A DNA stretch of 64,000 nt from an uncultured bacterium (GCA_963695095.1 CAVOFT010000001.1:1440001-1504000); one strand, 5' to 3'. Positions 42,123 through 59,960 are shown, numbered from the stretch's first letter. Notes: generated by a model from the letters alone, not told the origin. Numbers and translations: made by a program.

Positions 42123-44549
42123 TGCCCTGGCTCGTGCAGTCGCCGGGGCTGGTCTGCGGCGATGCCGCGCGGCGCCTGGAGTTCCCCGAACTGCTGGCGG
42201 AGCTCGCCGCGCGCGTGCGCTTCGCGCGCAGCGCGGCGGCCTTGACGGCCCTGACGCCGCTGGCGGAGCTGGGGGCCATCGAGGCCCGGCGCGCGCGCGT
42301 CGCCGCCTGGCAGCGCCTGCTCGAGGAAGGGCGCGAGCCCGAGCTGGAGGGACTCGTCGATCTCGGCGAGGGCATCGAGCGCTGCAAGACCCCGGGCGCC
42401 CAGCTGCCCGGCGAGGCCTTCTGGCAGCTCGCCCGCTGCCTGGGCGCCATCGCCCGCCTGGGCGACTTCCTCGCCGACGCCCGCCTGCTGGCGCCCGTCC
42501 TCCACGCGGACTGGGGCAATCCACCGGATCTGCGCGGCCTGGCCGGCGAGATCGAGCGCTGCGTCGACGAGGAGGGCCGCCTGCGGGACGGCGCGAGTCC
42601 CACCCTGGCCCGCCTGCGCGCGGCGATCCGCGAGAGCGAGTCGCGCGTGCGCGGGCGCCTGGACGCCCTCATCAAGGAGCGCCTGGCCGAAGGCGAGCGC
42701 GACCTGCGCCCACGCGTGCGCAGCGGTCGCCTCGTGCTGCCCGTGCGCCGCGAGCAGAAGAGCCAGCTGCCGGGCATCGTCCACGACGCCTCGGCCAGCG
42801 GCAAGACCCTCTTCGTCGAGCCGCTGGAGACCGTCGAGCTGAACAACGCGATCACGGCGCTGCTGGCCGAGGAGGCGCGCGAGTGCGCGCGCGTGCTCAG
42901 GGCGCTCACCGCCCGGGTCGGCGCCTGGGTGGATCCCATCCGCGCCTGCCTGGATGCCTTTCACCGGCTCGAACTGCCCCTGGCCGCCGCGCGCCTGGCC
43001 CGCGAGCGGGACTGGCAGTGGGCGGACTGGTCGCCGCCGGCCGAAGATCGCCTCGACCTGCGCGGGGCGCGGCATCCGCTGCTCGCGCGCTACTTGCCCG
43101 CCGGCGCGGCGCCCGTGCCGCTGGCGCTCGCGCTTGGCGCGGAGCAGCGCCTGCTGCTCGTCACCGGCCCCAACACGGGGGGCAAGACCGTCCTGCTCAA
43201 GACCCTCGGCCTGCTCGTGCTGATGAACCAGTGCGGGCTGCCCCTGCCCGTGGCCGAGGGCAGCCGCCTGCCGCTCTTCACGAGCCTCTTCGCGGATATC
43301 GGCGACGAGCAGTCCCTGCGCGATTCCCACTCCACCTTCAGCGCGCACCTCGCGCGGCTGGGGGAGATGGCGGCGGGCGCGGGACCGGGTGCGCTCATCC
43401 TCGTCGATGAGATCGGCGACGGCACCGATCCCGAGGAGGGGGCTGCGCTCGCGCAGGCCCTGATGGCCCACTGGATCGCCCGCGGGGCGCGGGCGGCCGT
43501 CACCACCCATTTCGGCGTGCTCAAGGGCTTCGCCCAGGGCGCGCCGGGGGCCGTCAATGCGGCGATGGACTTCGATCCCATCCAGCGGCGGCCCCTGTAC
43601 ACCCTCAGCCTCGGCGTGCCGGGGGCCAGCCGCGCGCTCGCCACCGCTCGCCGTCTGGGCATGGATGCCGACGTGCTCGCCGAGGCCGAGCGCCTGCTCG
43701 GCGCCGAGGCCATGCGACTCGAAAGCCTGCTCGAGCGTCTCGAGCGCGAGACGCAGGCGGCCGCCGCGGCCCGCGAGGCGGCCGAACAGCTGCGCGCCGA
43801 GCAGGAGGGCCTCGCCGCCGACTATCGCGATCGCCTCGCGCGGGTGCGCGCCCAGGAGCGCGCCATCCTCGCCGAAGCCCGCGAGCAGGCCGAGGGCTTC
43901 CTCGCGCAAGCTCGGCGTGACTTCGAGCAGGCCGTCCGCTCGCTGCGCGAGCGCGAGGCGGACCGGGAGAGCATCCGCGCCGGCCATGCCCTGCTCGAGA
44001 CCCTGGCGGCCCAGGCGCCCGCGCCGCCGCCGGCGGCTGAGCCGGGGCCTGTGCTCACCAGCTGGCGTGCCGGCGATCGCGTGCGCCTGCGCGCCACCGG
44101 TCAGACGGCGGAGATCCTCGAAGCGGCCGGCGGCGGCCGCCTGCGCGTCTCCCTGCGCGGGCTGCCCATGGTGCTGCCGCTCAGCGAGCTCAGCCCCCTG
44201 CCCGGCGGGAGCGAGGCGGAGGCGGCACGCCCGGCGGAGCGCTTCGCCGGCGTCAGCTACGAGGCCTCGGGTCCGGATTCCTACCGGCTCGACCTGCGCG
44301 GCATGCGCGCGGAGGAGGCGGCCGCGGCGATGGACGCCTTCCTCGACGCGGCCACGCTCGCGGGCTTCCACCTCGTGGAGATCCTCCACGGCAAGGGCGA
44401 GGGCATCCTGCGCGAGGAAGTGCGCCGGGCCCTGGCCCGGGATCCGCGCGTGGGGCGTTTCACGCTCGCCGATCAGAATCGCGGCGGCAGCGGCGTCACC
44501 GTGGCGCGCCTGGCGGGGGACCCGGAGCCCGCGGGGAGGCCGGCCGTGA
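42122..44549 (+). CDS. mutS2: Endonuclease MutS2 (reads in-frame into dnaG in this sequence)
   Basis: LEFPELL, GIVHDASASGKTLFVEP, TGPNTGGKT, DIGDEQS..STFSAH, DEIGDGTDP.EG, Smr LDLRG..ILHGKG.G.LR...GGSGVT; likely native stop TGA 44547-44549. Confidence 0.88.
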
Positions 44550-46387
44550 CTAGGCCCGATCCCGGCGCTGCCCAGAGCGATTTCAAGGAGAAGGTGCGCG
44601 CGGCCACCGACATCGTCGAGCTGATCGGCCAGTACCTGAAGCTGCGCCGGGCCGGGAGCAACTGGGTGGGCCTGTGCCCCTTCCATCACGAGAACAGCCC
44701 GAGCTTCAACGTGAACCAGGAGCGGCAGAACTTCTACTGCTTCGGCTGCGCGAAGGGCGGCGACGTCTTCAGCTTCGTCATGGAGCAGGAGGGCCTTGCC
44801 TTCCGCGAGGCGCTCGAGCACCTGGCGCGGCGGGCGGGGATCCCCATCGAGGCGGCCGGGGGCGGCAGCGGCGAGAGCAGCCGGGCCGAACTCTATCAGC
44901 GCATCAATGCCGCCAGCGCCGACTTCTATGGCCGCCAGCTGCGCGAATCGCCGGCCGCCGAGCGCGCGCGGGACTACCTGCGCCGGCGCGACGTGGGCGA
45001 GGAGGCCTGGCGCGACTGGGGCCTGGGCTACGCCGGGCAGTCCTGGCGCGACCTCCACCAGCAGCTCGCCCGGCAGGGCTTCCCGCCCGAGCGCTGCGAG
45101 GAACTGGGGCTCATCCGCCGCAAGGCCTCGAGTCCGGGCCACTACGACGCCTTTCGCAATCGTGTCATGTTTCCTGTCCGCTCGGTGGCCGGGCGGGTGC
45201 TGGGCTTCGGCGCCCGCGTGCTCGACGACAGCCTGCCCAAGTACATCAACTCGGCCGACAGCCCGGTCTACACGAAGAAGGCCATCCTCTACGGCCTGGA
45301 CCGCGCCTGGCGGGAAATCCGCCGCGCCAAGCTCGGCATTCTCGTGGAGGGCTACTTCGACGTGATCAGCCTGCATCTGGCGGGCGTCCCCCTGGCCGTC
45401 GCCGCCTGCGGCACCGCCTTCAGCAGCGATCAGGCCAAGCTCCTGGGCCGCTACACCGAGCGGGTCTGCGTCGTCACCGACGGCGACGCCGCCGGGCAGA
45501 AGGCGGCGGTGCGGGCGGCGGGCGTGCTGATCACCGTCGGCCTCAGGCCCAGCGTGCTCGCGCTGCCGGCCGGCGAGGATCCGGACAGCCTGATCCGCGC
45601 CGAGGGCGGCGAGGCCTTCCGCGAGCGGCTGCGCGGGGCGCCGGATTACTTCGACTACATGCGCGGCCTGGTCAGGGCCCGCGGCGACAAGCCGGCCGAG
45701 CGGGAGCGCGCCGTGCGCCGGATACTGGAGGACTTGACCGCTTTCTCCGAAGGCGACCTGCGCCTGGAGAGCCTGCTCGAGGAGCTCACGGCGGCCTTCG
45801 GGGTCGAGCGCACGGTGCTCGTGCACACCCTGCGCGAGACGCGGCGCCGCGCCGGCGACGGCAGGCGCGGGGCGCGGCGGCCGCCCGCGGCCGCCGGCGA
45901 GGCCGAAGCCGCCGTCGAGGCGGGCAGCCCCGAGCAGGAGCGCCTGGAGAAGCTGATGCTGGCCGTGCTGCTCGCTGCGGGTCCGGAGCGGGAGACGGTC
46001 TTCAGCCTGCTGCGGCCCGAGCACTTCGCCGACCCCTTGCGCGCCCGGCTCTACTCCGTGCTGGCGGCCCTGGGCCGGGCGCCGGACAGCCGGGAGCTGG
46101 GCGAGCTGTTTCCCGACCCGGCCGCGGCGCGGGCCGTCACCGAGCTGACCTTCCTGCGCCTGCCGGCAGGAAGCGCGCAAGATTGGGTGCGCACGAGCGC
46201 CCTGCGACTTAAATTGAAGCGGATGCTCGACCTCAACCGCGACTTCCAGGGCCGGGTACAGGCCCTGGAACTGGCGGGCGAGGAGGTCTCGGCGGATCTT
46301 CTCGCCGAGTGGCGACACGTGGGCGAAGCCATTCGCGGCCTGCGGGCCGAGATCGATCGCATTCTCGAAGCACAGAAGGGGTCCTGA
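44546..46387 (+). CDS. dnaG: DNA primase
   Basis: GGGGAGG RBS + GTG 44546; Zn finger CPFH.E.SPSF...YCFGC, FRNRVMFP, KYINS, Toprim VEGYFDV, DGD.AG, DPD. Confidence 0.92.
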   Translation: MTRPDPGAAQSDFKEKVRAATDIVELIGQYLKLRRAGSNWVGLCPFHHENSPSFNVNQERQNFYCFGCAKGGDVFSFVMEQEGLAFREALEHLARRAGIPIEAAGGGSGESSRAELYQRINAASADFYGRQLRESPAAERARDYLRRRDVGEEAWRDWGLGYAGQSWRDLHQQLARQGFPPERCEELGLIRRKASSPGHYDAFRNRVMFPVRSVAGRVLGFGARVLDDSLPKYINSADSPVYTKKAILYGLDRAWREIRRAKLGILVEGYFDVISLHLAGVPLAVAACGTAFSSDQAKLLGRYTERVCVVTDGDAAGQKAAVRAAGVLITVGLRPSVLALPAGEDPDSLIRAEGGEAFRERLRGAPDYFDYMRGLVRARGDKPAERERAVRRILEDLTAFSEGDLRLESLLEELTAAFGVERTVLVHTLRETRRRAGDGRRGARRPPAAAGEAEAAVEAGSPEQERLEKLMLAVLLAAGPERETVFSLLRPEHFADPLRARLYSVLAALGRAPDSRELGELFPDPAAARAVTELTFLRLPAGSAQDWVRTSALRLKLKRMLDLNRDFQGRVQALELAGEEVSADLLAEWRHVGEAIRGLRAEIDRILEAQKGS

Positions 46388-46389
46388 GC

Positions 46390-48150
46390 GTGAGCAAGTC
46401 CAAGACCAGCCGCATCATCGTCGCCCTCAAGAAGCTCGTCAGCAAGAAGAACTACATCCTCCACGACGACATCTACGAGCAGTTCTCGGAGGACTTCGAT
46501 ATCGATGCCGTGGACGTGGTCTACTCCCGCATCGCCGAGCTCGGCATCGAGGTCTTCGACAGCGAGGAGGAGGCCAAGACCAAGCTGCGCGCCCAGGAGG
46601 CGCGGGCCAAGAAGCTCAACGAGAAGATGAGCCAGGCCGCCGCCCAGAGCATGCGCTACGACGACCCCGTGCGCATGTACCTGCGCGAGATGGGCAAGGT
46701 GCCGCTCCTGGACCGCGAGGGCGAGATCGCCATCGCCAAGCGCATCGAGGCCGGCAAGCACCAGGTGCTCGAAGCGCTCTTCCGTTCGCCCTTCTCCGAG
46801 GCCCATGTCGATCAGTGGGTGGAGGCCCTCGCGAACGGCACGCTCAGCGTCGAGGACCTGATCCAGGTGGACACGGGCGGCTACCAGGAGCACCACACGC
46901 CCCAGAAGCGGGACAAGGCCACGGCCGTGCGCACGCTGCGCCGCCTGCGCAAGCTGGGCGAGGAGATCCTGGCCTGCGAGGAGAAGCTGGCCAGGGCCGA
47001 CACCGAGCGCAAGAAGCAGGCCGCCGAGAAGGCCCTGCAGACGCGGCGCGAATCCTGGCTGGAGTTGCTGCACGGGCTCAGCCTGCAGCCCAAGCGCGTG
47101 GACGAGCTGGTCCTCGCCCTGCGCGAGGTGCACGACGAGTTCCAGGCGGCGGCCAAGCAGGTGCACCACTACGAGAAGTTCCTCGGCATGGACTACGATG
47201 GCTTGCGCGAGACCATCGCCCGCATGAAGGACCGCGGCTGGAAGAACATCCAGCTGCGCGGCAAGGGGCGCTGGACGCTCACGGCGCTCGAGGACCTGCG
47301 CCGCAAGCAGTACGGCCTGCATCCGCAGCCTCAAGACCCTGGAGAAGGAGCGCGGCGTCACCCGCGAGCAACTCGAGGCGCTGCTCACCCGCGTCGAGCA
47401 GGGGGAGCGCCGCGGCGAGCAGGCCAAGAAGGAGATGATCGAGGCCAACGTGCGCCTGGTGATCTCCATCGCCAAGCGCTACACGAACCGCGGCCTCGAG
47501 TTCCTGGACCTGATCCAGGAGGGCAACGGCGGCCTGATGCGCGCCGTCGACAAGTTCGACTACCGCAAGGGCTACAAGTTCTCCACCTACGCGCACCTGG
47601 TGGATCCGGCAGGCGATCACGCGCGCCATCGCCGACCAGGCGCGCACCATCCGCGTGCCCGTGCACATGATCGAGGCCATCAACAAGGTGAGCCGGGCCA
47701 GCCGCAAGCTCATCCAGGAGTACGGCCGCGAGCCGACCCCGGAGGAGGTGGCCAAGTACCTCGCCTTCCCCGTGGAGAAGGTGAAGAGGGTCATGAAGGC
47801 CAGCATGGAGCCGATCAGCCTGGACCGGCCCATCGGCGAGGACGAGGACAGCAACCTCGGCGACTTCATCGAGGACACTGCACGCCGACAGCCCGGCCTC
47901 ACTCGGCCGCGCACTCGATGCTGCAGGATCAGACTCACCAAGGTGCTGTCCACGCTGACCCGGCGCGAGGAGAAGGTGATCCGCCTGCGCTTCGGCCTCG
48001 GCGACGGCACGCCCGCGCACCCTGGAGGAGGTGGGCACCATCTTCCAGGTCACCCGCGAGCGCGTGCGGCAGATCGAGGCCAAGGCGATTCGCAAGCTCC
48101 AGCACCCCAGCCGCGCCCGCAAGCTCAAGGGCTACGTGGAGAACTACTAG
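46390..48150 (+). CDS. rpoD: Primary sigma factor sigma70 (about six apparent single-base insertions)
   Basis: [83 protein letters not shown] across several frames. Confidence 0.93.
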
Positions 48151-48163
48151 GCGTCAGTCCGGG

Positions 48164-48188
48164 GGCGGGCCGGGCAAAGCGGCCCGCC
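48164..48188 (+). terminator. Hairpin after rpoD (possible terminator)
   Basis: GGCGGGCCG...CGGCCCGCC followed by AT-rich sequence. Confidence 0.5.
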
Positions 48189-48192
48189 AATC

Positions 48193-48233
48193 TTGATTAT
48201 TCGGTCGATTACTCGCTAATTATGGCCTATCCT
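48193..48233 (+). promoter_or_regulatory. AT-rich promoter region of the barrel-to-cytochrome operon
   Basis: TCGATT-N17-TATCCT (alternatively TTGATT-N18-TAATTA); contains TTCGGTCGAT, shared with 57322-57331. Confidence 0.45.
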
Positions 48234-48302
48234 TAGTGGGCTCGAACCCGGACTCCGCACCCGGCGCCGCCCTCCGGGCGGCCTCGCGCAGCAACGAAGG
48301 CC

Positions 48303-50495
48303 ATGGCCAGCCCCTCCCGCCAGCATCTTGCGCTCCCGTCCCGCCTCTGTGCGCAGGGGCTGCTCCTGGCCGCCCTCGCCCTCGCTTGGCCCGGCAGCGC
48401 CCGCGCCCTGGACGGCAAGCTCGGCTTCCGCCAGAGCCAGCAGGATGGCGGTTTCGGCGCTCAGGACTACAGCCTGCAGGTGATCACCCGCGATGCCTAC
48501 GCCCAGCAGCTGGTGGGCCTCTGGCCGGGCCTGTCCCTGCGCCTGGAGGCCCAGGTCCGGGATGAGGCCACGCAGAGCCGGGTCGGCGCGACGAGCTCGG
48601 CCTGGAATCAGCTCAATCGGCGCGCGGGCATGGCCCTGCGCTACGGGGACCCGCGCCTGCATCTCGAACTCCGAGCCAGCGGCCGCCGCCGGGAACAGGA
48701 GCCCGATCCCGGACCCCGTCTGAGCCAGGACCTCGGCCAGCTCGGCCTCTGGAGCCAGCTGCGGGCCGCTCGCTGGCTTCGCCTGCAGGGCAGCTGGCTC
48801 GAGACGCGGGCCTGGCGCGAGGAGGACGCCCTCGCCGACGTGGAGACCCGCGAATCCCTGCGCTCGGCCAGCGCCGAGAGTCCGCTGTCGATCGGCACCC
48901 TGCGCTACGGCTACTCCCGACAGGCCACCGAGAACCTCGCCCGCGGCAACCTGAGCGTCCACGCGAGCCACCTCGTCGGCTACGACGGCGGCTTCGGCTT
49001 CCAGGACCAGCGCGGCCGGGTGTCCCTGAGCGCCCGCGCCCGCCGCTTCCAGCAGACCCTGACCCAGAGCGAGCTGACGGGCCGCCTCCTGCTCGAACCC
49101 GCGACGGCGGGCCTGCGCATCGACGCCTCGCCGGAGGTGGACGATCCCCTCGAGGAGCCCCTGAGCCTGGTGCCGGCGCTCATCGATCTGGATCGCCGCA
49201 GCGCCACGGTGGTCGATCTGGGCGACGATGCGCCCGTCGGCCTGCAGCTCGGCGGCGACTACCGGAACCTGCAAATCGATCTCGGCGCGCCCACTGCCGT
49301 GGCGGCGGTGCTGCTCTACGTGGACCGCCGTCCCACCGCGCCCCAGCTCATGCAGTGGAGCCTCTACGTGGCCGAGGATCCCGAGGGCCGCCTCTGGACC
49401 CGCCACGAGGCAGCCAGCGCGAGCGCCCGCTATCGAGACTGGGACGAGGACCTTCAGGGCTGGGAGTTCACCTTGCCGGGCGAGCTCGTCCTGCGCCACT
49501 TCAAGCTCGTCAATGCGAAGCTGGGACCGGTGGAGCCCGAGCTGCGGGTCACCGAGATCGAGGCCTACACCGCGGAGACCTTGCCCGCCGGCGAGCGCCA
49601 GGAGACGAGCGACAGCCAGCGCCTGCAGGCGGGCCTCGACTACCGGCTCAGCCAGGACTGGCGCGTACGGGCGGACCTCGCGCTTCGTCTGCGCAACTAC
49701 GCGACGGGGCGGGCGGACCAGGACGATCGCAGCGAGGGCCTGGGTCTCTTCTGGGCCCGGGACGTTTGGTCCGCCGCCGGTCGGCTGGAATGGCGCCGTC
49801 TCGAGAGCGGCGGCCAGCTCGACAGCGACGTCGACACGCGCAGCCTTTCGCTGCGGCGGCGGCTGGCGGGCCGCCACGCCCTCAGCCTGCACCTCGATCA
49901 GCTGGCGGACCGGGGCCGCGGCGCCGATCGCCGGTCCCGGACGATCAGCCTGGGCAGCGAGTGGCAGTTCGCCCCCGGCCTGCGCCTGGATCAGCGGCTG
50001 AGCCACGGCTGGCTGCGCGACGAGGGGCAGAGCTTGAGCTCGCGCTCGCTCACCTCCTACACGGCCCTGCACAGCGTGCCCTTCAGCTGGCTCTTCCTGG
50101 AACTCAGCCGCGTGGATCGCTGGGTGGAGCGGGAGGCGGGCTACGGCTACTCGCGCTTCAACGACACGACGCTCACCCTCGGCTGGACGCCGGTGCCGCT
50201 GATCAGCCTGCGCAGCCACGTCGTCTACCAGGACCGCGGCAGCGGCGAGTGGCTGGTCAACCACAGCCTGGCGTGGACGCCCCTGCCGGGCGGGGACCTG
50301 TCTCTGCGTTTGAACGCCAGCCAGTTCTCTGATACTCGTGTAGATTCCCGCCAGAACGGCGCGGGCGCGACGCTGGCCTGGACGCCGCGCCCGCGGCTGC
50401 TCCTGGAGACCGGCGTGGACGCTCAGCGCTATCGGCGCCCGGAGGGCGTCAGCTCGCCGGTGAACGGCTTCGTGAAGGGCAGCCTCGCCTTCTGA
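48303..50495 (+). CDS. Large outer-membrane beta-barrel with internal discoidin-like insertion
   Basis: Signal peptide ending SARA; amphipathic Arg/Ser/Trp-rich strands; C-terminal Phe (GSLAF); internal IDLG..AV..V.LY...HFKLV...LRVTEIEAY. Confidence 0.7.
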   Translation: MASPSRQHLALPSRLCAQGLLLAALALAWPGSARALDGKLGFRQSQQDGGFGAQDYSLQVITRDAYAQQLVGLWPGLSLRLEAQVRDEATQSRVGATSSAWNQLNRRAGMALRYGDPRLHLELRASGRRREQEPDPGPRLSQDLGQLGLWSQLRAARWLRLQGSWLETRAWREEDALADVETRESLRSASAESPLSIGTLRYGYSRQATENLARGNLSVHASHLVGYDGGFGFQDQRGRVSLSARARRFQQTLTQSELTGRLLLEPATAGLRIDASPEVDDPLEEPLSLVPALIDLDRRSATVVDLGDDAPVGLQLGGDYRNLQIDLGAPTAVAAVLLYVDRRPTAPQLMQWSLYVAEDPEGRLWTRHEAASASARYRDWDEDLQGWEFTLPGELVLRHFKLVNAKLGPVEPELRVTEIEAYTAETLPAGERQETSDSQRLQAGLDYRLSQDWRVRADLALRLRNYATGRADQDDRSEGLGLFWARDVWSAAGRLEWRRLESGGQLDSDVDTRSLSLRRRLAGRHALSLHLDQLADRGRGADRRSRTISLGSEWQFAPGLRLDQRLSHGWLRDEGQSLSSRSLTSYTALHSVPFSWLFLELSRVDRWVEREAGYGYSRFNDTTLTLGWTPVPLISLRSHVVYQDRGSGEWLVNHSLAWTPLPGGDLSLRLNASQFSDTRVDSRQNGAGATLAWTPRPRLLLETGVDAQRYRRPEGVSSPVNGFVKGSLAF

Positions 50496-50521
50496 GGCGG
50501 GCCCCTGGCAAGGAGAGTCAG

Positions 50522-51154
50522 ATGATGGCATGTGAAGGGCGCGAGAAGGGCCGACCGGCCAGGGCAGGGCGCGCGCAGCCGGCAGGCGGCCGCCTGCTGC
50601 CGAGCCTGCTCCTGCTCGTGGGCCTCGCGTCGGCGCTGGGCGCCTGCGCGGCCTCCGTGACGAGCTACCAGCATCCCGGGGTGGATCTGAGCCACGTCCG
50701 GCGCGTGGCCGTGCTGCCCTTCGCCAACCTCAGCGGCGACGAGTTCGCCGATGAGCGGATCGCCTCGCTCTTCCTCACGCGCCTCTTGCGCGCCCAGGTG
50801 GTGGAAGTCGTGGAGGCGGGCGCCGTGCGCGAGGCGCTCATCGCCCAGCGCTTGAGCGCCGGCGCGATCGCCACGCCCGAGCAGCTGGTCGCCCTGGGCG
50901 CCGCCCTGGGCGTGGATGGGCTCTTCGGCGGCACCGTCGAGGAATGCGGCCTGCTGCGCAGCAACCGCGAGTCCCTCAGCCAGGTCACCCTGAGCTTCAC
51001 CCTGACGGAGACCCAGCACGGGGTGCTGGTCTGGCGCGCCCAGACCCACGCCTCGAGCGCCTCCTTCTGGCGCCGGCTCTTCGGCACCGAGGCGCGCTCC
51101 CTGCACGCGGTCAGCGCGGAGGCCGTGGACCGCGCCCTGGGCACCCTGTTTTGA
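50522..51154 (+). CDS. Lipoprotein, GNA1162/DUF799 (CsgG-like) family
   Basis: Lipobox LGAC; VRRVAVLPFANLS, LG..LGVDGL..GTV.E.G, G.LVW. Confidence 0.7.
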   Translation: MMACEGREKGRPARAGRAQPAGGRLLPSLLLLVGLASALGACAASVTSYQHPGVDLSHVRRVAVLPFANLSGDEFADERIASLFLTRLLRAQVVEVVEAGAVREALIAQRLSAGAIATPEQLVALGAALGVDGLFGGTVEECGLLRSNRESLSQVTLSFTLTETQHGVLVWRAQTHASSASFWRRLFGTEARSLHAVSAEAVDRALGTLF

Positions 51155-52260
51155 GCCTGCGCGCCGGCATCCTGCTCCTCGCGGCGCTGCTGATGGCGCC
51201 CGCCCTGACGGCGCCCGCTCCAGCGGCTGCCGAGACCGGCGGGCTGCCCGCAGCGGCGCTGGTTCTCTTCCTGGACGCGGAGAGCGACGCGGCCCTGCCG
51301 GCGGCGCCGGCTCTCCTGCGCGAAACGGCCCGACAGGCGCTGGTGGCGGCCCTGGCCGCCCCGGGCCGGCGCCTGTGCGCCGGTGACGAGGTGGAGGGCT
51401 TGCTTGCCGACGCGCGCGTGCGCTCGCGCCGCGGACTGAGCCGCGAGGTCGTGGCGGCACTCGGCGAGCGCTGCGGCGCCGAGCAGGTCATCATCGCGCG
51501 CCTGGCCTGCGGCCAGGGCAAGCTCTTCCTCGCCCTGCGCGGCCTCGCGGCCGCCGACGGCCGCCTGCTCCAGGTTGCCGTCGCCGAGCAGGACCTCGCC
51601 GGCGGCGAGGACTGGCGGCGGGCCATCGGCGATGCCAGCCTCGAGCTCGCGGCCCGCTGGCAGGAGCCGGCGCCGGATGCCGCCGCGGCCGGCCTCCTGG
51701 TGCTGCCCGCGCGGGGGCCGGGCGTCGATCCCCTGCTCCTGTCGCTCGTCGAGGAGAGCCTGCTCGCGGAACTCCTCGCCCAGGGGCGCTGGCGCATTCC
51801 CGATCCGGCCCTGCTGGTCAGCGCGCTGCGGCAGGCCGGCATCCATCCGGCCAGCATCGGTGCCGCGAGCCGGCGCGCCCTGGCCGCCGAGCTGGGCGCC
51901 GAGTCCCTGCTGCGTCTGAGCGTGAGCGAGTACGAGGCCGGCCTGCCCGGCGCCGGGCTGCGCGGCGCCGGCAGCGGGGACATCGCGGACGAGGACGGGC
52001 GGCGCGGTAGCGCTTCCCGGCGCCCGGGAGCCTCGCCGGCCGCGCGGCAGATCGGTCGGCCGCTCCTGGCGACCCTGGAGCTCGTGAGCGCGGAGAGCGG
52101 ACTGCTCGGCCTGGCCGCCGAGCAGTACCTGCCGGCGCTGTCGCTGCGCGGGAGCTTCGGCCGTGCGCGGCGGCTGCCCTGGGCCGCGCGCTGCGCGGAG
52201 TTGACTGCACCCCTGGCCGCCGCCTTCGCCGTCGCCAGCGCCCCCGGGGGGCAGCCATGA
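51151..52260 (+). CDS. Exported protein with two CsgG/TolB-N-like alpha/beta domains
   Basis: TTG overlapping upstream TGA; signal peptide; twice-repeated L...GAE pattern (LGERCGAEQVI, LAAELGAESLL). Confidence 0.5.
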   Translation: MSLRAGILLLAALLMAPALTAPAPAAAETGGLPAAALVLFLDAESDAALPAAPALLRETARQALVAALAAPGRRLCAGDEVEGLLADARVRSRRGLSREVVAALGERCGAEQVIIARLACGQGKLFLALRGLAAADGRLLQVAVAEQDLAGGEDWRRAIGDASLELAARWQEPAPDAAAAGLLVLPARGPGVDPLLLSLVEESLLAELLAQGRWRIPDPALLVSALRQAGIHPASIGAASRRALAAELGAESLLRLSVSEYEAGLPGAGLRGAGSGDIADEDGRRGSASRRPGASPAARQIGRPLLATLELVSAESGLLGLAAEQYLPALSLRGSFGRARRLPWAARCAELTAPLAAAFAVASAPGGQP

Positions 52261-52316
52261 AGCCGAGGCCCGCCCGCGGCCCCTGCCCGAAACTGCGCAC
52301 GAGAAAGGTAAGCGGC

Positions 52317-54036
52317 ATGCTCAAGCGCTCCCCGCCTGTCCCGCCTGCTGCCCGCAGCCTCCCTGCTGGCGCTGCTCCTGTCCCTGGCCGCGGCGCCCGC
52401 TCCGCAGGACGGCGACGAGCGGCTGCTCGCCTGGGTCAACGGCGAGGCGATCACCCTCGACGATCTCGAGGCGGAGCTGAAGCGGCTGCCGGCGCCGGAT
52501 AGCGCCGCCACGCCGCCCGCGGCCACCGCCGTGCTCCGGCGGCTCGTGCAGGATCGGCTGCTGGAGCAGGAGGGCTATCGCATCGGCGCCGATGGCGAGC
52601 CCGCCGTGCGCAACCAGGTGCAGGATCTCCTGCGCCTGCGCAGCGTGGTCGCGCTGCTGGACTCGATCTCCGCGCCGGGCGCCGAGGAGGGCGCTGCCGA
52701 ACTGGACAGCCTGATGAGCAAGGAGAGCCGGCTCATGCATCTGGCACACATCCTCGTGGCCGAGGAAGGCACCTCCCGCGCCTTGCTGGACAGCCTGGCC
52801 GCCGGCCTGCCCTTCGCGGACCTGGCGCGCCGTCACTCCACCGACGGCAATGCGGCCCGCGGCGGGGATCTCGGCTGGGCGGCCGCAGGCGCCTATGTCC
52901 CCGAGTTCGAAACCGCGCTGGCGCCGCTGGCGCCGGGCGAGGTGTCCGGTCCCGTGCGCACGGAGTTCGGCTGGCACCTGATCAAGCTGCTCGAGGTCCG
53001 CAGCGAGACGGTGGGCCAGTCGCCCGCCATGCGCGAGGCCATGCACAAGACCCTCGAGCGCGAGCAGCGCATGGCCGCCGTGCGCGACTACGTGGCCGGG
53101 CTCCGGGCGCGCTACGGCGTCGCCGTCGACGACTCGCTGCTGGCGAGCCTCGACTTCGGCAGCGAAGACCCGGCGGTTCAGGCCGGCCTGCGCGAGAGCG
53201 ACGCAACGCTGGCCGTGCTGCCCACGGGGCGGCTCACCGTGCAGGGCCTCTACCGGCAGCTCATCTTCAAGTACTTCCACGGGCTGGCCGGGCGCCCCGA
53301 GGCCGCCAGTCTGCGCGACAGGGTCTTCCGCGAGTGGGTGGACGAGGCGCTGCTCAGCCACGAGGCCCGCATCCTGGGCCTGCCCGAGCGGCCGGCGCTC
53401 CGCGCCGAGGCGAAGCGCCTGGAGCGCTCGCTGCTCCGCGAAGAAGTCCTGAAGACCCTGCTGCTCGGCCTCTCGACCGCGGCGCCCGCGGAGGCGGAGC
53501 TGACGGCCTTCTACGCCGCCGATCCCGGCCGCTTCGCCGCGCCGGCGCGCGTCAAGCTGCGCAGCTTGCGCTTCGCCGCGCCCGAGAGCGCCCAGGGCTT
53601 TCGCGCAAAGCTCGAACAGGGAGCCCAGTTCAGCTGGCTCGCCGCGCGCGACCCCGCCGTGCTGGCCGGGCCGCCGCCCTTCGGCGAGGACTGGCTGGAC
53701 CCGGCGACCCTCGACCTGCCGGCTGCAGAGCTCGTGGAGGGGGCCGTGCTGGGTCCGCTCGCCCTCGAGGAGGGCTGGGCGCTGATCCTGGTCCAGGCCC
53801 GCGAGCGGGTGGAGCCGCCGCCCTTCGCCAGCTGCCGCGCCGAGGTCCTGGCGGCCTATCAGCGGGAGCAGAAGCAGGAGGCCATCCGCCGCGCGCTGAA
53901 TCGGCTGGAGCAGGCGGCCACGATCACGATGCTGCCGGCGGCCGAAGCGCGCGTCGCCGCGCGCCTGGCGGCACTCGGCGGGGGCGGGGCGGGCGGCAGC
54001 GGGAACGGCAATCAGCCCAGCGGAGGTCAGCACTGA
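52317..54036 (+). CDS. SurA/PrsA-like peptidyl-prolyl isomerase foldase, two parvulin domains (frameshift ~52330)
   Basis: AAAGG RBS + ATG 52317; signal peptide; LAWVNGEAIT; AHILV...FADLARRHS.D...GGDLGW...EFE.A...GEVSGPVRTEFGWHLIK; second degenerate PpiC domain. Confidence 0.85.
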
Positions 54037-57000
54037 TGAAGACGCGTGCAATCCCGGCCCAGCCCAGCGCTCGCCGCGCGGGCTTGCTCGGACTCGGGGC
54101 CCTGATCCTGCTGCTTGCCGGCATCGGGCTGCCGCGGCCCGCGGCGGCGCCGGGCAAGGGTCTGGGCTCTCGCGACTGCCTGGACTGCCACGAGGAACTC
54201 AAGCGCGAGCTCGGGCGCAAGCATGCCCACGCGCCCTTCGCCGGCAAGGACTGCGAAGCCTGCCACAAGCCGCATGGCCTCATGGGGGGCCTGATCCTGA
54301 AGACCGAGATCAATACGCTCTGCCTGGAGTGCCACGCCGGCGTCAAGGACGCGCGCGAGGCGGCCGTGCTGCATGGTCCCTTCGCGAAGGGCAAGTGCAC
54401 GGACTGCCACGATCCCCATGGCTCGGGCGAGGCGGGGCTCCTGCCCGGCAAGGGCGCCGGGGCCTGCACCGGCTGCCACGACGGCGCCGCCTTCACGGGC
54501 GCCACCCTGCACGCGCCCCTGCGCGACGGGGATTGCGCGGCCTGCCACGCCGGCCATGGCGCGCCCGAACCGGGCCTGCTGCGCAAGCCGGCGACGGCGC
54601 TCTGCCTGGACTGCCACGCGGCCGACCAGGCCCTGCGCAGCCGCCATGGCGGCGTGGACGTGAGCGCGGCGGCCTGTGTCAGCTGCCACGATCCCCACAG
54701 TGCCGCGACGCCGGCCCTGCTCGCCCGCTCCATTCACCCGCCGGTGGCCGACCTCGACTGCGCGAGCTGCCACGAGCTGGATGCAGCCGGCCGCGTCTCG
54801 CCGAGCGGGGATCCCGCCGCCAGCTGCGCCGCCTGCCACGACGAGGGCGAGCGGCGACCGTCGGTACCGCACCCCGCCTTCGCCGACGGCGCCTGCACGG
54901 ACTGCCATTCGCCCCACGGCAGCAGTCAGCCGGCCCTGCTCAGGGATCGTGAGGATCGGCTCTGTCTCGATTGCCACGACGACCAGGGGCGGGACTTCGC
55001 CCGCGCGCACACGCACGCGCCGGCGGCCGCAGGCCGCTGCAGCGCCTGCCACGACGCCCATGGCGCCGAGCAGCCGGCGCTGCTGCGGCAGGAACTCGGC
55101 GCGCTCTGCCGGTCCTGCCATCAGGAAGCGAGCATCACCGCGGGCCCCGGCCAGCACGAGCACAGCGCCACGGCCAGGCGCGCCTGCACGACCTGCCATG
55201 AGCCCCATGGCTCCGAGCAGCCGCAGCTGCTCAACGCCCCGGCGGGCGATCTCTGCCTGTCCTGCCACCTCAAGATCAAGTTGCTCAACGCCTCCGCGCA
55301 TCCCCATGCCGTCGTGGCCAGCGGCGACTGCCTCGCCTGCCACGAAGCGCACGTGGGCACGACGAGCGCGCTGCTCAAGGCGGCGCCGGGCACGCTCTGC
55401 CTGAGCTGCCATGCCGACTTCGCCCAGGCGCCGGCGGGGGGCAGCGTGCATCCACCGGCGGCGGCGGGCGATTGCCTGGACTGCCATGAGCCCCACGGCG
55501 GCGAGCGGCCGGCCATGCTGAGCCAGGCGCCGGAGGCGCTCTGCCTCGCTTGCCACGACACCGGGGCCGGGCTGCCCGTGCCGCATGCGCCGGTGGCCGG
55601 CGGCCGCTGCACGGAATGCCACGATGCCCATCGGGCGCCCGGCCAGCACTTGCTGGCGGCGCCGCCGGCGCTGCTCTGCGCCGGCTGCCATGCGGAGACG
55701 GCGGCCAGCGAGGGCAAGGTCTCCCTGCACCCGCCGGCAGCGGCGGGCGATTGCCTGGACTGCCACCTGCCGCACGGCGGCGAGGCCAAGGGCCTGCTCA
55801 GCCAGGCGCAGCCGGCCCTCTGCTTCGATTGTCACGACGGCGGACGGCGCCGCCTTCCGCGGCGCCCACCTGGGCAGCGCGGACCCCGGCTCGCTGGACT
55901 GCATGGGCTGCCACGAGCCGCACACGGCCGCCGCGCCGGCGCTCATGCATGCCAAGGCGCACCCACCCTTCGCCGATCGCGACTGCCAGGCCTGCCACAA
56001 GGCCGGCGAGACGGCGGTGCCGCGGGGTGTCTGCCTGGACTGCCATGACGATCCCATTGCCGGCCGCAAGCACGTCCACGCACCCGTTGCCTCGGGCGAC
56101 TGCCAGGCCTGCCACAACCCCCATGCCGCCGCCGGTGAGCATCTCTTCGCAGGCAGCGTGGGGGAGAGCTGCTATGGCTGCCATGAGCCCCAGGCCCTCG
56201 CCCCGGTGCCGGCCCTCGCCCACGCGCCGCTGCGCGAGGGGCGCTGCGAGGCCTGTCACGACGGCCATGCCTCGAATCAGCCCGCGCTGCTGCGCCAGAG
56301 CGCGGGCACGCTCTGCCTGAGCTGCCATGCCGAGCTGGGGGACCCGGCTCAGGGCAAGGCCCATGCGCCCGTGGCCCGGGGCGATTGCAGCGTCTGCCAC
56401 GACGCCCACGGCAGCGCGGAGCCGGCCATGCTGAAGAGGGCGCTGCCCGGACTCTGCCTGGACTGCCATAAACTCGGCGCCGCGGGGATGTCCACCGCCC
56501 ATCGCGGCTTCGATCTCGCGGGTGCGGACTGCGCCGGTTGCCACGAGCCCCACCGCTCCCGGCTACCCGCCCTGGGCCGGCAGGGCTCCGTCCACACGCC
56601 CTACGCCGAGAGGCGCTGCGCCGACTGCCATGCCGGGAGCAAGGCGCCGGCGAAGCCCGAGCGGGAACTCTGCCTGGGTTGCCACCGCAGCCTCGGCGAG
56701 GAATTGAAGACGGGCCGCGTGCATCCGGCGCTCGAGCAGGGGGCGGCTTGCAGCAACTGCCATGTACCGCACGCTGCCGCCCAGCCCTGGCTGCTAGCCA
56801 AGGAGCAGGGCGCGCTCTGCGGCCGCTGCCATGCGGAGCAGCAGGACGCCCTGGCGAGCGCGGCTTTCGCGCACCCGCCCGGACCCCGGGGGCTCTGCGC
56901 AAGCTGTCACGACCCCCATGCCGAATCCACCGAGCAGCTGGGACCGACGCCCGAGCTCTGCAGCAAGTGCCACGATTTCAGCAAGCACGTGAGCCATCCG

Positions 57001-57156
57001 CTGGGCGCCGGCGTGCTCGACCCGCGCACTGGCGAGGAGCTGGGCTGTCTGAGCTGCCACGCCGCCCACGGCTCCGTCCAGAAGTACTTCCTCCTGGACG
57101 ACCCGCACGGACGGCTCTGCGTGCAGTGCCACACGGACAAGATCCGCAGCCGCTAG
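54036..57156 (+). CDS. Giant multiheme c-type cytochrome, 42 CxxCH (doubled-CxxCH repeats), ~1039 aa; one inserted base ~55840
   Basis: Signal peptide; 24 CxxCH counted before 55840 and 18 after in the +1 frame; repeat unit HxP..G.CxxCHxPH....LL.....LCxxCH. Confidence 0.9.
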
Positions 57157-57185
57157 GGCGGAAGCGTTCGAACGATCGTACCCAA

Positions 57186-57214
57186 AGGGCCGCCTCCATC
57201 CCGGGGGCGGCCCT
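57186..57214 (+). terminator. Hairpin after the giant cytochrome
   Basis: AGGGCCGCCTCC-ATCCC-GGGGGCGGCCCT; weak U tract. Confidence 0.5.
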
Positions 57215-57279
57215 CCCTATTAGCGCCGCAGCCCGGCTGCCTGGGGCCGGCGCGGGCACTTGCGCGGGTCTTCAGTGTC

Positions 57280-57400
57280 GTTTCATGATTCGTAAACTAT
57301 GTAATTTCAACGAACTGAATTATCGACCGAAGTGAGAGAATATGGATCCAAGATTAGATGATGTTCTTGACCGATATGATGTGAATTAGGTAACATACAT
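57280..57400 (+). promoter_or_regulatory. AT-rich regulatory region/promoter of the NHL-omcS-like unit
   Basis: Markedly AT-rich ~120 bp; TTGACC-N18-TAACAT at 57367-57396. Confidence 0.6.
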
Positions 57401-57450
57401 ACCGGTCAGCGACGCTAACCCGCGCTGGTCCGAGGCACCGAGTACCGCGC

Positions 57451-58583
57451 ATGGAGTCCAGGCCGATGTCCAGCCGATCCATTGCTCGCCTGCTGCTCGT
57501 CCTCATCCAGGTTCCGCTCATCGCGATGCCCGCGGCAGCCACCTGGGTGATGGACTACGCGGGACAACTGTCACCGAATTTTCACGAGCAGGCCTGCAAG
57601 CGGCCCGTCGGGGTGAGCTACGCGCCGACGGGCGATGAAGCTCTGCGTCACCGATGCCGGCGAGCGCAGCCTGCGCGTCTACTCGGGCGAGGGCATCTTC
57701 ACCTTCGCGACCGGGGGCGTGGCCGAACTCGCACAGCCCGGCGACGCCCTGCTCGACGCGATGGGCGGCTTCGTGCTTCTGGACAGCCACAGCGGGCTCG
57801 GCCGCACCCTGCGCCGGCTGGACTATCGCGGCGAGCCGCAGGCCTTCAGCGTCGAGCGCCCCCGCGCGGACTGGAGTCCCCAGCATCTTCTGCTCACTCG
57901 CGACGGCGGCCTGGTGACCGTGGACAACGCGCACCGGCTGCTGTGCAAGCACGACGGCGCCAGCGGCGCCCTGCTCTGGAGCCGCGAGAGTTGTCGGCGG
58001 CCCCGAGGACGTAGACCGCGATCTGGGCCTGGGTCGTCCCGCTGAGACAGCCGATGGCCGCCTCTATCTGCCCAGCGGACTCCTGCACCGCGTGCTCGTG
58101 CACGACGGCGAGGGTCAGCCGCAGGGCGCGTTCGGCCGCTTCGGCTCCGCCCGCGGGCAGTTCGTCTTCCCCGTCGGCGTGGCGATCGGTCCCGAGGGCA
58201 CCGTGCTCGTGCTGGACCGCCTGCGCCATGCGATCCTGCTCTTCGATGCCGAGCAGCATTTCCTGGCCGAGTACGGCAGCTTCGGCGGCCGTCCGGGCCA
58301 GTTCTACCACCCGAACGCCATCGCCGCGATGCCCGATGGCCGCGTCGTCGTGACCCAGGGTTACCTGGGCCGCGTCCAGAGCTTCCGGCTCTACGACGCG
58401 AGCGAGCGGGCCGAGGCCGCCCACTCTGGAGCGCCGGCCTGGCCCTTCGGTCGCGAGCAAACCGTCACTCGCCACGATGTACCAAGGGGGTGCAGCCTTT
58501 CGGTGCCGGCAGCCGGCGCCAACCAAACGCATGCTATCGACTTTTTCCCGCAGTGTCTCCTAGTCCTGAACCCAACATCATGA
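57451..58583 (+). CDS. Secreted NHL-repeat beta-propeller protein (frameshifts ~57640, ~57990, ~58015)
   Basis: Signal peptide; P.GV...LCVTD; FGRFGSARGQFVFPVGVAIGPEG.V.VLD; YGSFGGRPGQFYHPNAIA..DGRVVV.QGYLGRVQ. Confidence 0.8.
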
Positions 58584-58593
58584 GGTAACCGCA

Positions 58594-59697
58594 ATGAGAC
58601 TGTTCAAGCTCATGGGCCTCGCTGCCGCTCTGGTCCTCGCGTCCAGCGGCGCCGCGCTGGCCTTCCACGACGGCGGCGTCGCCGACTGCCAGGGCTGCCA
58701 CACCATGCACAACAGCATGGACGGCGAGCAGGTGGCCGACGTCGCAACCGGCAACGCGTACCTGCTCATCGACGGCAACTCCAGCGACACCTGCCTCAAC
58801 TGCCATGCGGCCTACGGCCAGTTCCTCGGCGGCACGGGCTACGGCCCGGGCGGCGACTTCTACTGGCTCACCAAGACCTACTCCTGGGATGCCCACGGCA
58901 GCACCGTGGAGAGCTCGGGCGACAGCCACGGCCACAACGTCATTTCGCCGGCCTATGGCCTGGCCGAGGACATGACCCTCAGCGAGGCCCCGGGTGGCGA
59001 CTTCCTGTCCACCTACCTGCGCTGCACGAGCTGCCACGATCCCCACGGCAACCAGAGCTTCCGTCTGCTCTACGGCACCGCCATGGGCCCGGTCTACAAC
59101 GGCGGCCGCTATGACTTCGACAGCGATGCGCCCGAGGCCAAGGGCAACAGCCGGCGCACCTACGTCGGCGGCGGCGGCAACGAGACCAACGCTCGCCACA
59201 CCGTCTACAAGTCGGGCATGAGCGAGTGGTGCGCGAACTGCCACACCACCTTCCACTCCGACAACACCAACAACTTCGTGCACCCCACGGGCGAGAACCT
59301 GGGCTCGACGATCGCGGCGGCCTACAACGCCTACATCAGCACGGACGAAGTGGTGGGCGGCGATCCGGCGACCTCCTACTGGGGCATCGTGCCCTTCGAG
59401 GCCGTCAACGTGGACCTGGAGACCGTCAGCACGACCAACAACACGCAGGGTCCGGGCGGCACCGATCAGGTGATGTGCCTGTCCTGCCACCGCGCGCACG
59501 CCTCGGCCTTCGGCGACGCGGGCCGCTGGGACTTCGGCGAGACCTTCATCGCGGAATCCCATCCCCAGCCCACGGACACCGGCTGGACGCAGGAAGACGC
59601 GGACAACATGTACTATGACTACACCTTCGTCCACAACCAGCGCTCGCTGTGCAACAAGTGCCATGTGAAGGACCTGGGTGATGCCCCTTTGGAGTAG
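58594..59697 (+). CDS. omcS-like: OmcS-family hexaheme cytochrome c (nanowire subunit homologue)
   Basis: Signal peptide then FHDGGVADCQGCHTMHNS; six CxxCH; PGGDF.W..KTY.W, GHNV, CTSCHDPHG, GMSEWCANCH, HP.G, PFE, CLSCHRAHAS, QRSLCNKCHVKD, all recalled hallmarks of G. sulfurreducens OmcS/OmcT. Confidence 0.9.
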   Translation: MRLFKLMGLAAALVLASSGAALAFHDGGVADCQGCHTMHNSMDGEQVADVATGNAYLLIDGNSSDTCLNCHAAYGQFLGGTGYGPGGDFYWLTKTYSWDAHGSTVESSGDSHGHNVISPAYGLAEDMTLSEAPGGDFLSTYLRCTSCHDPHGNQSFRLLYGTAMGPVYNGGRYDFDSDAPEAKGNSRRTYVGGGGNETNARHTVYKSGMSEWCANCHTTFHSDNTNNFVHPTGENLGSTIAAAYNAYISTDEVVGGDPATSYWGIVPFEAVNVDLETVSTTNNTQGPGGTDQVMCLSCHRAHASAFGDAGRWDFGETFIAESHPQPTDTGWTQEDADNMYYDYTFVHNQRSLCNKCHVKDLGDAPLE

Positions 59698-59771
59698 TGG
59701 TCACGGGAATTCCCCTCGGCTTCTAGCGAGGGGGCGGCCTTGAGGTCCCCGTGACCTCGATGGACATCTGG

Positions 59772-59801
59772 CGGGCGGCTCCGCGAGGAGCCGCCCGTTT
59801 T
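59772..59801 (+). terminator. Intrinsic terminator after omcS-like gene
   Basis: CGGGCGGCTCC-GCGA-GGAGCCGCCCG-TTTT. Confidence 0.88.
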
Positions 59802-59856: not shown

Positions 59857-59929
59857 GGGCCCATAGCTCAGTGGTGAGAGCAGACGACTCATAATCGTTG
59901 GGTCGCAGGTTCAAATCCTGCTGGGCCCA
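59857..59929 (+). tRNA. tRNA with CAT anticodon, most likely tRNA-Ile2 (lysidine)
   Basis: GGGCCCA/TGGGCCC acceptor, anticodon arm GACGA-CTCATAA-TCGTT similar to Ile2 tRNAs; lacks initiator features. Confidence 0.88.
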
Positions 59930-59960
59930 CTGGCCGTTCACCCCCTTTGTCGCGGTGCGC

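Follow-up and report, generated by a model that had tools for sequence, protein, structure and literature searches.

Seven co-oriented genes in a 64,000-nucleotide (nt) stretch of DNA from an uncultured bacterium (GCA_963695095.1 CAVOFT010000001.1:1440001-1504000; the whole stretch is called the window below) very probably constitute, as judged from sequence comparison, the Krumholzibacteria version of the omcS-companion (osc) system, which is built around the filament-forming cytochrome OmcS. According to the available text of PMC12977616, an eight-gene block, GSU2500-GSU2493, is tied to OmcS maturation and secretion in Geobacter, and GSU2495 encodes a 26-haem protein. The part of PMC13194489 at hand assigns folding to OscH, secretion to OscE/F/G, and morphology to OscD (~473 aligned residues), and equates GSU2495 with oscI and GSU2494 with oscJ. 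The original prediction for this DNA, made from the sequence by itself, had named the osc cluster, and both sources place that cluster in print. The locus belongs to an already described kind of system. Its particular features are a fused 42-haem cytochrome, a short OmcS, a separate promoter for the NHL and omcS genes, and an OscD counterpart that was not found in the genome.

The last gene of the cluster encodes the OmcS homologue. When the protein was compared with all PDB chains using phmmer, OmcS itself (6EF8/6NEF) was recovered with an E-value of 2.3e-53, and nothing else appeared at E ≤ 1. The match to 6ef8_A runs in two stretches over query residues 24-360 and chain residues 1-407, that is, from the first to the last mature residue. 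The six CxxCH motifs, at C32, C67, C144, C213, C295, and C353, are invariant in all 14 sequences of an alignment comprising the window protein, three Krumholzibacteria relatives, and ten others from Geobacteraceae, Desulfuromonadales/Desulfuromonadaceae, Deltaproteobacteria, a Nitrospira-labelled metagenome-assembled genome (MAG), and an Archangiaceae MAG. The putative distal histidines H25, H114, H151, and H230 are likewise invariant, H39 and H302 are present in 13/14 sequences, and the window protein has all 12 ligand histidines. The early description of this protein as an OmcS-like hexahaem cytochrome is thereby borne out. The signal peptide ends in ALA, directly before FH, leaving a mature protein of ~343 residues in which H39 becomes position 16. 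We take H39 to be the equivalent of OmcS His16, the residue that binds a haem of the neighbouring subunit. Such an inter-subunit bond between histidine and haem is described for OmcS in the accessible portion of PMC12307469.

The window protein thus resembles the OmcS filament subunit (6EF8, 6NEF) in its six CxxCH motifs, in six further conserved histidines including the His16 equivalent, in the mature N-terminus FH.GG, and in the C-terminal CNKCH.KD. It differs in that three loops are missing from the Krumholzibacteria form, which is ~70 residues shorter; the precursor measures 367 amino acids (aa) here, compared with 436 aa for the aligned Geobacteraceae OmcS precursor (407 aa mature in 6EF8), and polymerisation is only predicted. 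Identity to Geobacteraceae OmcS is ~35-39% (BLASTP, E 6e-68). Two distant OmcS paralogues lie elsewhere in the genome, with 37% identity by tblastn and 40-42% by another similarity search.

The companion genes were compared with the surroundings of omcS in other bacteria. A degenerate DNA pattern of the OmcS N-terminus retrieved 23 stretches from species-representative genomes, among which G. sulfurreducens itself (whose omcS is GSU2504) is absent. By record title, these stretches belong to Geobacter/Geobacteraceae, Desulfuromonadaceae/-ales, Deltaproteobacteria, Anaeromyxobacter and other Myxococcota, Nitrospirota, and a Nitrospira-labelled MAG. Using the window proteins as tblastn queries, homologues of the lipoprotein, the peptidyl-prolyl isomerase (PPIase), the cytochrome, and the NHL protein were found to adjoin OmcS, as was the barrel in some loci. 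A Geobacteraceae MAG locus, L038, served as the stand-in for Geobacter. Its genes encode, in order, OmcS, a 4-haem protein, an OmcS-like protein, a 467-aa propeller, a 767-aa barrel, a 198-aa lipoprotein, a 431-aa protein, a 591-aa PPIase, a 26-haem protein, a 16-haem protein, a 299-aa NHL protein, and a hexahaem protein. The window is collinear with the part from barrel to hexahaem, where homologues of all seven window genes are found, and it covers seven of the eight genes of the GSU2500-GSU2493 block. Direct BLASTP against L038 was significant for five of the seven. For profile comparison by hhalign, Geobacter-type sets were drawn from omcS neighbourhoods in Geobacteraceae, Desulfuromonadales, Anaeromyxobacter, Nitrospirota, and others; matched against the Krumholzibacteria sets, the barrel, third protein, lipoprotein, PPIase, and NHL protein reached probabilities of 96.1-100%, compared with 0.1-0.4% for three unrelated pairings. 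The companions therefore have homologues next to omcS in Geobacteraceae and in further lineages, as the original prediction had expected, and the gene order is shared.

The Krumholzibacteria cluster thus shares with the Geobacter osc cluster a barrel, a lipoprotein, a PelC-like two-domain protein, a PPIase, 26- and 16-haem parts, an NHL protein, and an OmcS-type hexahaem protein, in an order common to the Geobacteraceae locus. It differs in its Krumholzibacteriota host, in the fusion of the 26- and 16-haem genes, and in the OscD-position (YncE/lactonase-like) propeller, which was not found in this genome. Furthermore, a single OmcS gene stands at the 3' end of the cluster behind its own promoter, whereas omcS, omcT, and oscC stand at the 5' end in Geobacter. 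As a separate observation, OmcS genes whose N-terminal part fits the Geobacter OmcS peptide pattern occur in the Nitrospirota-labelled MAGs L012 (Nitrospira japonica MAG) and L020 (Nitrospirota bacterium) and in the Myxococcota-labelled L021, L023, L025, and L027 (Anaeromyxobacter, Myxococcaceae, Archangiaceae), and several of the Nitrospirota and Myxococcota loci have osc-type neighbours.

The first three genes occupy the positions of OscE, OscF, and OscG, and each is single-copy in the genome. The AlphaFold2 model of the first protein (pLDDT 85.2, pTM 0.71) is a very large beta-barrel with ~28-30 strands by our own DSSP count, ~11 before and ~18 after an inserted beta-sandwich at ~259-410 (DSSP line count), in keeping with the outer-membrane barrel first proposed. 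The profile comparison with the Geobacter-type set gave 99.9% (E 1.9e-32, 671 columns). The barrel has no match in Pfam or NCBIfam, and the sole hit of the PDB sequence-profile search, to YeCBM32 (2jd9) over profile positions 335-399, is non-significant (E 0.47). Residues ~330-440 carry a conserved ...VTE(I/L)E.Y motif in the inserted beta-sandwich, and by its sequence the insert is possibly a discoidin/CBM32-like domain that binds carbohydrates or surfaces. The word-based search yielded few relatives (10 for the barrel, 13 for the lipoprotein), and the alignments were topped up from the loci.

The lipoprotein matches its Geobacteraceae neighbour directly (BLASTP, E 7.8e-28) and by profile (hhalign 100%, E 1.7e-41), and the cysteine of its lipobox, LGAC, is invariant in 27/27 aligned homologues. 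It had been called a DUF799-type lipoprotein: the lipoprotein part of that name holds, while DUF799 does not hold for the window protein itself, as Pfam gave LpoB alone and below the cut-off (E 0.003), although its homologues carry PF13036 or PF05643 and one is named PelC by JGI. The third protein, with 103 representative homologues at E ≤ 0.001, has no match in Pfam or in the PDB sequence-profile search and was linked to the Geobacter-type set by hhalign (96.1%, E 3.1e-9). Its model (pLDDT 87.0, pTM 0.84) displays two tandem alpha/beta domains, for which Foldseek retrieved GNA1162 (4hrv, E 6e-6, TMt 0.59-0.67), PelBC (9h80_A, E 4e-5), and the PelC dodecamer (5t11, TMt 0.66), as well as the TolB N-domain and LpoB. 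CsgG, whose name the protein had first been given, is a weak match (4uv2_O, E 1.8e-3, TMt 0.31) that ranks 43rd after GNA1162, TolB-N, PelC, and LpoB, and two tandem PelC/GNA1162/TolB-N/LpoB-like domains describe the protein better. In the Geobacter-type third protein, the C-terminal domain is in addition recognised by the lipoprotein profile (98.3%); in reverse, the pairing was weak (9.9%).

By analogy with PelBC, a barrel underlain by PelC-like proteins could be a polymer exporter. As in PelB-PelC (9h80; PelC dodecamer 5t11), a lipoprotein of the PelC/GNA1162/LpoB fold stands beside an outer-membrane barrel (Foldseek E 4e-5, TMt 0.57-0.66). Unlike in PelB-PelC, the cargo here would be a haem protein and not a polysaccharide, there are two distinct PelC-like proteins, one of them with two domains, and no PDB match was found at the sequence level; a ring is proposed by analogy. 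A complex prediction with barrel residues 30-730 and the mature lipoprotein (43-210) scored 0.00 against a mark of 0.32, which is uninformative either way.

The next two genes encode the putative folding and wiring components. The PPIase contains a Pfam Rotamase domain (E 6.7e-20), as expected of the PpiC-type foldase first named here, and matches the Geobacteraceae PPIase both by BLASTP (E 8e-23) and by hhalign (99.9%, E 4.9e-37, 459 columns). The cytochrome carries 24+18 CxxCH motifs on either side of a frame break; the resulting count of 42, given already in the original prediction, recurs as one uninterrupted 42-motif open reading frame (ORF) in 4/4 relatives (genomes G002, G027, G032, and G012). 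Against L038, its N-terminal 601 residues align with the 26-haem protein (E 4e-112) and the C-terminal 436 with the 16-haem protein (E 3e-71), and Pfam Paired_CXXCH_1 was found in both pieces (E 1.5e-132 and 1.5e-75). By sequence, the 42-haem cytochrome is a fusion of OscI-like 26-haem and OscJ-like 16-haem parts. The NHL protein matches Pfam NHL (E 3.3e-7), and the intact NHL proteins of the relatives match the Geobacter-type set at 99.9% (hhalign, E 3.2e-34), consistent with the propeller initially suggested. The best Geobacteraceae match of the window piece is the 299-aa NHL protein that follows the 16-haem gene in L038 (E 1.3e-7), the OscD-position protein giving E 1.6; judged on these matches, the window gene is the counterpart of the NHL gene after the 16-haem gene (GSU2493 position) and not of OscD.

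The combination of a large barrel, a periplasmic multihaem protein, and an outer cytochrome encoded together also recalls the MtrCAB/Pcc conduits. Among the Foldseek matches of the barrel (227 at E ≤ 0.001), MtrB (6r2q_B, E 7e-9) had the highest TM-score, with a TMq of 0.31, and the cytochrome passes the threshold of TIGR03508, the DmsE/MtrA decahaem family (309.5 versus 192.2 bits). The locus could accordingly be read as a porin-cytochrome conduit without a filament, in which the barrel would sheathe part of the 42-haem protein as MtrB does MtrA, and the OmcS homologue would be a monomeric or surface-bound terminal reductase. The absence of the three loops of the Geobacter protein from the window OmcS fits this reading, and the available text of PMC12977616 leaves open that the cluster first secreted a hexahaem protein other than OmcS. 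However, the TM-scores are low throughout (0.24-0.31) and the matches are generic large barrels, with no clear sign of a similarity specific to MtrB, and the TIGR03508 score stems from the many repeated paired-CXXCH units. In addition, the outer cytochrome is of the OmcS type and not of the MtrC type, the subunit-bridging histidine of OmcS is kept, and the barrel is accompanied by a PPIase and by PelC-like proteins typical of polymer export. A conduit of this sort is therefore considered clearly unlikely, and the osc-type filament system is the preferred reading.

Several points weigh against the assignment to the osc system. Taken literally, the sequence has four +1 breaks that put the PPIase, cytochrome, and NHL genes out of frame, and these three genes would be broken. 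The barrel (E 3.4) and the third protein (E 0.76) have no direct BLASTP match to L038 and were matched via profiles only, and the GSU and Osc names used here were set by gene order, size, and the citing papers, as far as their text is available, and not by identity. The OscD-position propeller was not found in the genome, which is 93.5% complete, either by tblastn (none at E < 1e-5) or by a whole-genome search (none at E ≤ 0.001, 7 candidates scored). Finally, the available portion of PMC13194489 cites studies in which Geobacter could grow on anodes or reduce Fe(III) oxide without OmcS, so that the physiological weight of the system is debated even there.

The frame breaks, which the original prediction did not mention, could in principle be real mutations in a decaying, non-functional cluster. 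The PPIase start codon (ATG at 52317) lies in frame 3 and the signal peptide and body in frame 1, placing a +1 break within the first few codons. Based on tblastn with the relatives' intact orthologues, the cytochrome passes from frame 3 to frame 1 near 55838-55846, at the tandem GACGGCG GACGGCG (55836-55849). With the intact orthologues of G002 and G027 as queries, the NHL gene was found in frame 1 to ~57650, in frame 2 to ~57985, and in frame 3 from ~58002. Four breaks across three genes would fit decay, as would the position of the cytochrome break at a 7-nt tandem repeat, which is atypical of homopolymer error. Yet rpoD, directly upstream at 46309-48150, is itself spread over three frames, with six single-base insertions relative to G002 (47320, 47592, 47878, 47901, 47933, and 48015), and a second full-length primary sigma factor was not found in the genome, where the next matches are partial and ~36% identical. 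Since a sole primary sigma gene with six such insertions is incompatible with a living cell, the breaks are most likely consensus errors of the assembly (two contigs, 3.64 Mb) and not gene decay. The same follows from the direction of the changes, all of which are +1, and from a second very large cytochrome outside the window, at C1:1612491-1616440, that is likewise split over two overlapping frames with 20 + 16 CxxCH motifs. Moreover, unbroken orthologues occur in G002, G027, G032, and G012, and the third-codon G+C of the pieces that pass the composition filter (the PPIase body and two NHL pieces) is 0.80-0.92, as in other genes. Decay is thus highly improbable, and the pseudogene reading was rejected on account of the state of rpoD.

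The features of the locus are collected in Table 1. As the G+C content of the window is 72%, with long spurious ORFs on both strands, genes were chosen by codon-position G+C and similarity. All seven genes announced by the original prediction were found on the + strand at 48303-59697, inside the 48190-59801 interval. The predicted translational coupling is visible at two junctions, where the TTG start of the third gene overlaps the lipoprotein stop by 2 nt and the cytochrome ATG overlaps the PPIase stop by 1 nt; the remaining gaps within units are 26, 56, and 10 nt. The division into two apparent transcription units is supported by a 294-nt spacer (57157-57450) between the cytochrome and NHL genes, which contains a hairpin and a promoter-like site; a promoter scan returned 2 such sites compared with 0.2 expected from shuffles. 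By eye, a TTGACN-16/18-TAnnnT site is present in the pre-NHL spacer of 5/5 loci (the window, G002, G027, G032, and G012), its first part reading TTGACT in the four relatives, whose spacers also have a hairpin at the equivalent place. Because the hairpin and promoter-like site recur in all five spacers, the unit encoding the NHL protein and the OmcS subunit is probably driven separately from the machinery operon. When riboswitches and other known RNAs were sought in the spacers, the tRNA alone scored, apart from a sub-threshold antisense match on the tRNA and one chance-level match.

Table 1 Features of the osc-type locus and its borders (window coordinates).
Feature	Position	Strand	Basis and remarks
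Terminator-like hairpin after rpoD	48164..48188	+	9 G-C pairs then AATCTTGATT (terminator scan); upstream cluster edge
Outer-membrane beta-barrel, 730 aa	48303..50495	+	GSU2499 (OscE) position; AlphaFold2 model, hhalign
Lipoprotein of the LpoB/GNA1162(DUF799)/PelC kind, 210 aa	50522..51154	+	GSU2498 (OscF) position; BLASTP, hhalign, lipobox
Secreted two-domain PelC/GNA1162/TolB-N/LpoB-like protein, 369 aa	51151..52260	+	GSU2497 (OscG) position; model, Foldseek, hhalign
Periplasmic parvulin-type PPIase chaperone	52317..54036	+	OscH position; Pfam Rotamase, BLASTP, hhalign
42-CxxCH cytochrome (fusion, OscI-like 26-haem + OscJ-like 16-haem)	54036..57156	+	Motif count, BLASTP, Pfam
G+C-rich hairpin 3' of the cytochrome gene	57184..57217	+	Read from the sequence; not flagged by the terminator scan
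Sigma-70-type promoter-like site ahead of NHL-omcS	57367..57396	+	TTGACC-18-TAACAT; scan
NHL-repeat beta-propeller	57451..58583	+	GSU2493 position; tblastn, Pfam NHL, hhalign
OmcS homologue, 367 aa, six CxxCH	58594..59697	+	phmmer against PDB, histidine alignment
G+C-rich hairpin then TTTT, unit end	59770..59801	+	Read from the sequence; not flagged by the scan, just four T
tRNA-Met, downstream of the cluster	59857-59930		

A working model of the system can be proposed from its sequences, in which the export route, polymerisation, the part played by the NHL propeller, and the way the electrons flow are conjectural. The operon at 48303-57156 would supply the export and wiring machinery, namely the large barrel, the lipoprotein with its two-domain relative of the PelC/GNA1162 kind, the parvulin, and the 42-haem periplasmic cytochrome, while the second unit (57367-59801), with its own promoter, would supply the NHL propeller and the OmcS-type hexahaem subunit. 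The proteins would be exported via Sec and receive their haems from ResB/CcsA encoded elsewhere in the genome. The PPIase may then aid the folding of OmcS, which is proline-rich and nearly structure-free, and OmcS would exit through the barrel, which would have a ring of lipoprotein below it, as in PelB-PelC. Outside the cell, OmcS is predicted to stack head to tail, the histidine at mature position 16 binding a haem of the neighbouring subunit, and the 42-haem protein may conduct electrons over the periplasm to the base of the filament.

The same machinery might instead serve mainly for electron uptake, from Fe(II) oxidation, a partner cell, or a mineral, and not for electron disposal. Cytochrome chains conduct in both directions, and the available text of PMC7914226 describes a Krumholzibacteria MAG, enriched in a methane- and iron-fed reactor, that carries both OmcS and Cyc2 genes, leaving the direction open; the content of the window, however, is silent on direction, and a role chiefly in uptake is regarded as rather unlikely. 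Within the osc-type reading, it could also be speculated that the locus encodes a stripped-down, self-contained envelope wire, in which the fused 42-haem protein (~1,040 residues) spans the periplasm and docks in the ring formed by the barrel and the PelC-like proteins, and a minimal OmcS (~343 mature residues) polymerises through this ring without an OscD-type propeller. This more specific proposal is tentative and somewhat doubtful. If true, an uncultured phylum would be electroactive in sediments and sludge, no OmcS-type nanowire subunit would be smaller, and the genes would form the simplest set with which to rebuild nanowires in a different host.

The host lies outside Desulfobacterota. 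Proteins of the same-genus genome G002 are labelled 'Candidatus Krumholzibacteriia bacterium' and 'Candidatus Latescibacteria bacterium' by NCBI, placing the host in Krumholzibacteriia, and the labels of further near relatives of the OmcS protein read Krumholzibacteria or Eisenbacteria. The 'FCB-group' label of the original prediction was not confirmed, as the NCBI lineage puts the phylum directly under Bacteria. A cytochrome c maturation system, on whose presence the original prediction depended, is encoded as a System II pair of ResB (C1:1733622-1734935) and Cytochrom_C_asm (C1:1736198-1736815), side by side; CcmE was not found in the genome. ORF pieces that have three or more CxxCH motifs number 25 in the genome, with 234 motifs between them.

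Within the phylum, occurrence varies by family, from common to not found: an OmcS homologue (E ≤ 1e-20) is present in 57/208 genomes, 39/125 high-quality genomes, and 21/81 genera, and in only three of nine families. Excluding this genome, the family counts are 4/11 (f1), 48/91 (f2), 4/10 (f6), and 0/95 for the other six; the counts include related genomes, which are not independent samples. The barrel (E ≤ 1e-10) occurs in 53/208 genomes, all of them among the 57 with OmcS, leaving G007, G046, G112, and G132 with OmcS only. In 46 of 52 genomes, this one excluded, OmcS and the barrel lie on one contig within ~11 kb of each other (hand count). Queries with the 467-aa OscD-position propeller of L038 (Pfam YNCE-like/Lactonase) gave no match in 6/6 genomes of family f2 searched, and an OscD-type propeller adjoins OmcS in G021.

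Two layouts were observed across the phylum. OmcS lies 1-3 kb from the barrel, as in Geobacter, in G009 and G011 (from the family of the window genome), G021, G160, G146, and others, and is 47-53% identical to the window protein. In G002 and family f2, by contrast, it lies 9-10 kb from the barrel, behind the PPIase, 42-haem, and NHL genes, and is 63-82% identical. This genome and G002 thus have the layout and OmcS type of family f2 and not those of their own family, which suggests transfer within the phylum or differential loss.

The original prediction had presented such nanowires as not known to have been demonstrated in this lineage, and that novelty was overstated: the osc cluster has been published as widespread, reportedly by Shen et al. 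2025 (Cell Chem Biol 32:239), to go by the title. The OmcS genes of Krumholzibacteria had, besides, been reported in 2021, via FeGenie, in a MAG described in the available text of PMC7914226, the only work on OmcS in Krumholzibacteria found in the literature. Many multihaem proteins are noted in Krumholzibacteriota MAGs in the accessible part of PMC11495043. While the locus opens no new kind of system, it adds an uncultured phylum to the range of a nanowire assembly system that was described recently, and it lends support to the idea that electron exchange with minerals or partner cells through cytochrome filaments is widespread. Its compact form, with one OmcS gene, a fused 42-haem cytochrome, and OscD not found in the genome, is also convenient as a minimal set, both for reconstruction in a heterologous host and for finding out which companions are truly needed.

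Upstream of the cluster, two further observations were made. In G027 (L008 16545-17408, - strand) and G012 (L010 15205-16182, - strand), a 7-CxxCH cytochrome of ~290-330 aa is encoded just upstream of the barrel, and the G027 protein matches MtrC/MtrF domain II/IV with an E-value of 4.9e-10; this gene is missing from the window, where rpoD abuts the cluster. Finally, positions 42122-46387 form a single 1421-aa ORF in which a MutS2/Smr-like N-terminal part runs stop-free into a DnaG primase-like part (families assigned from reading the translation), and this may reflect a stop codon lost through assembly error or a chance in-frame junction.

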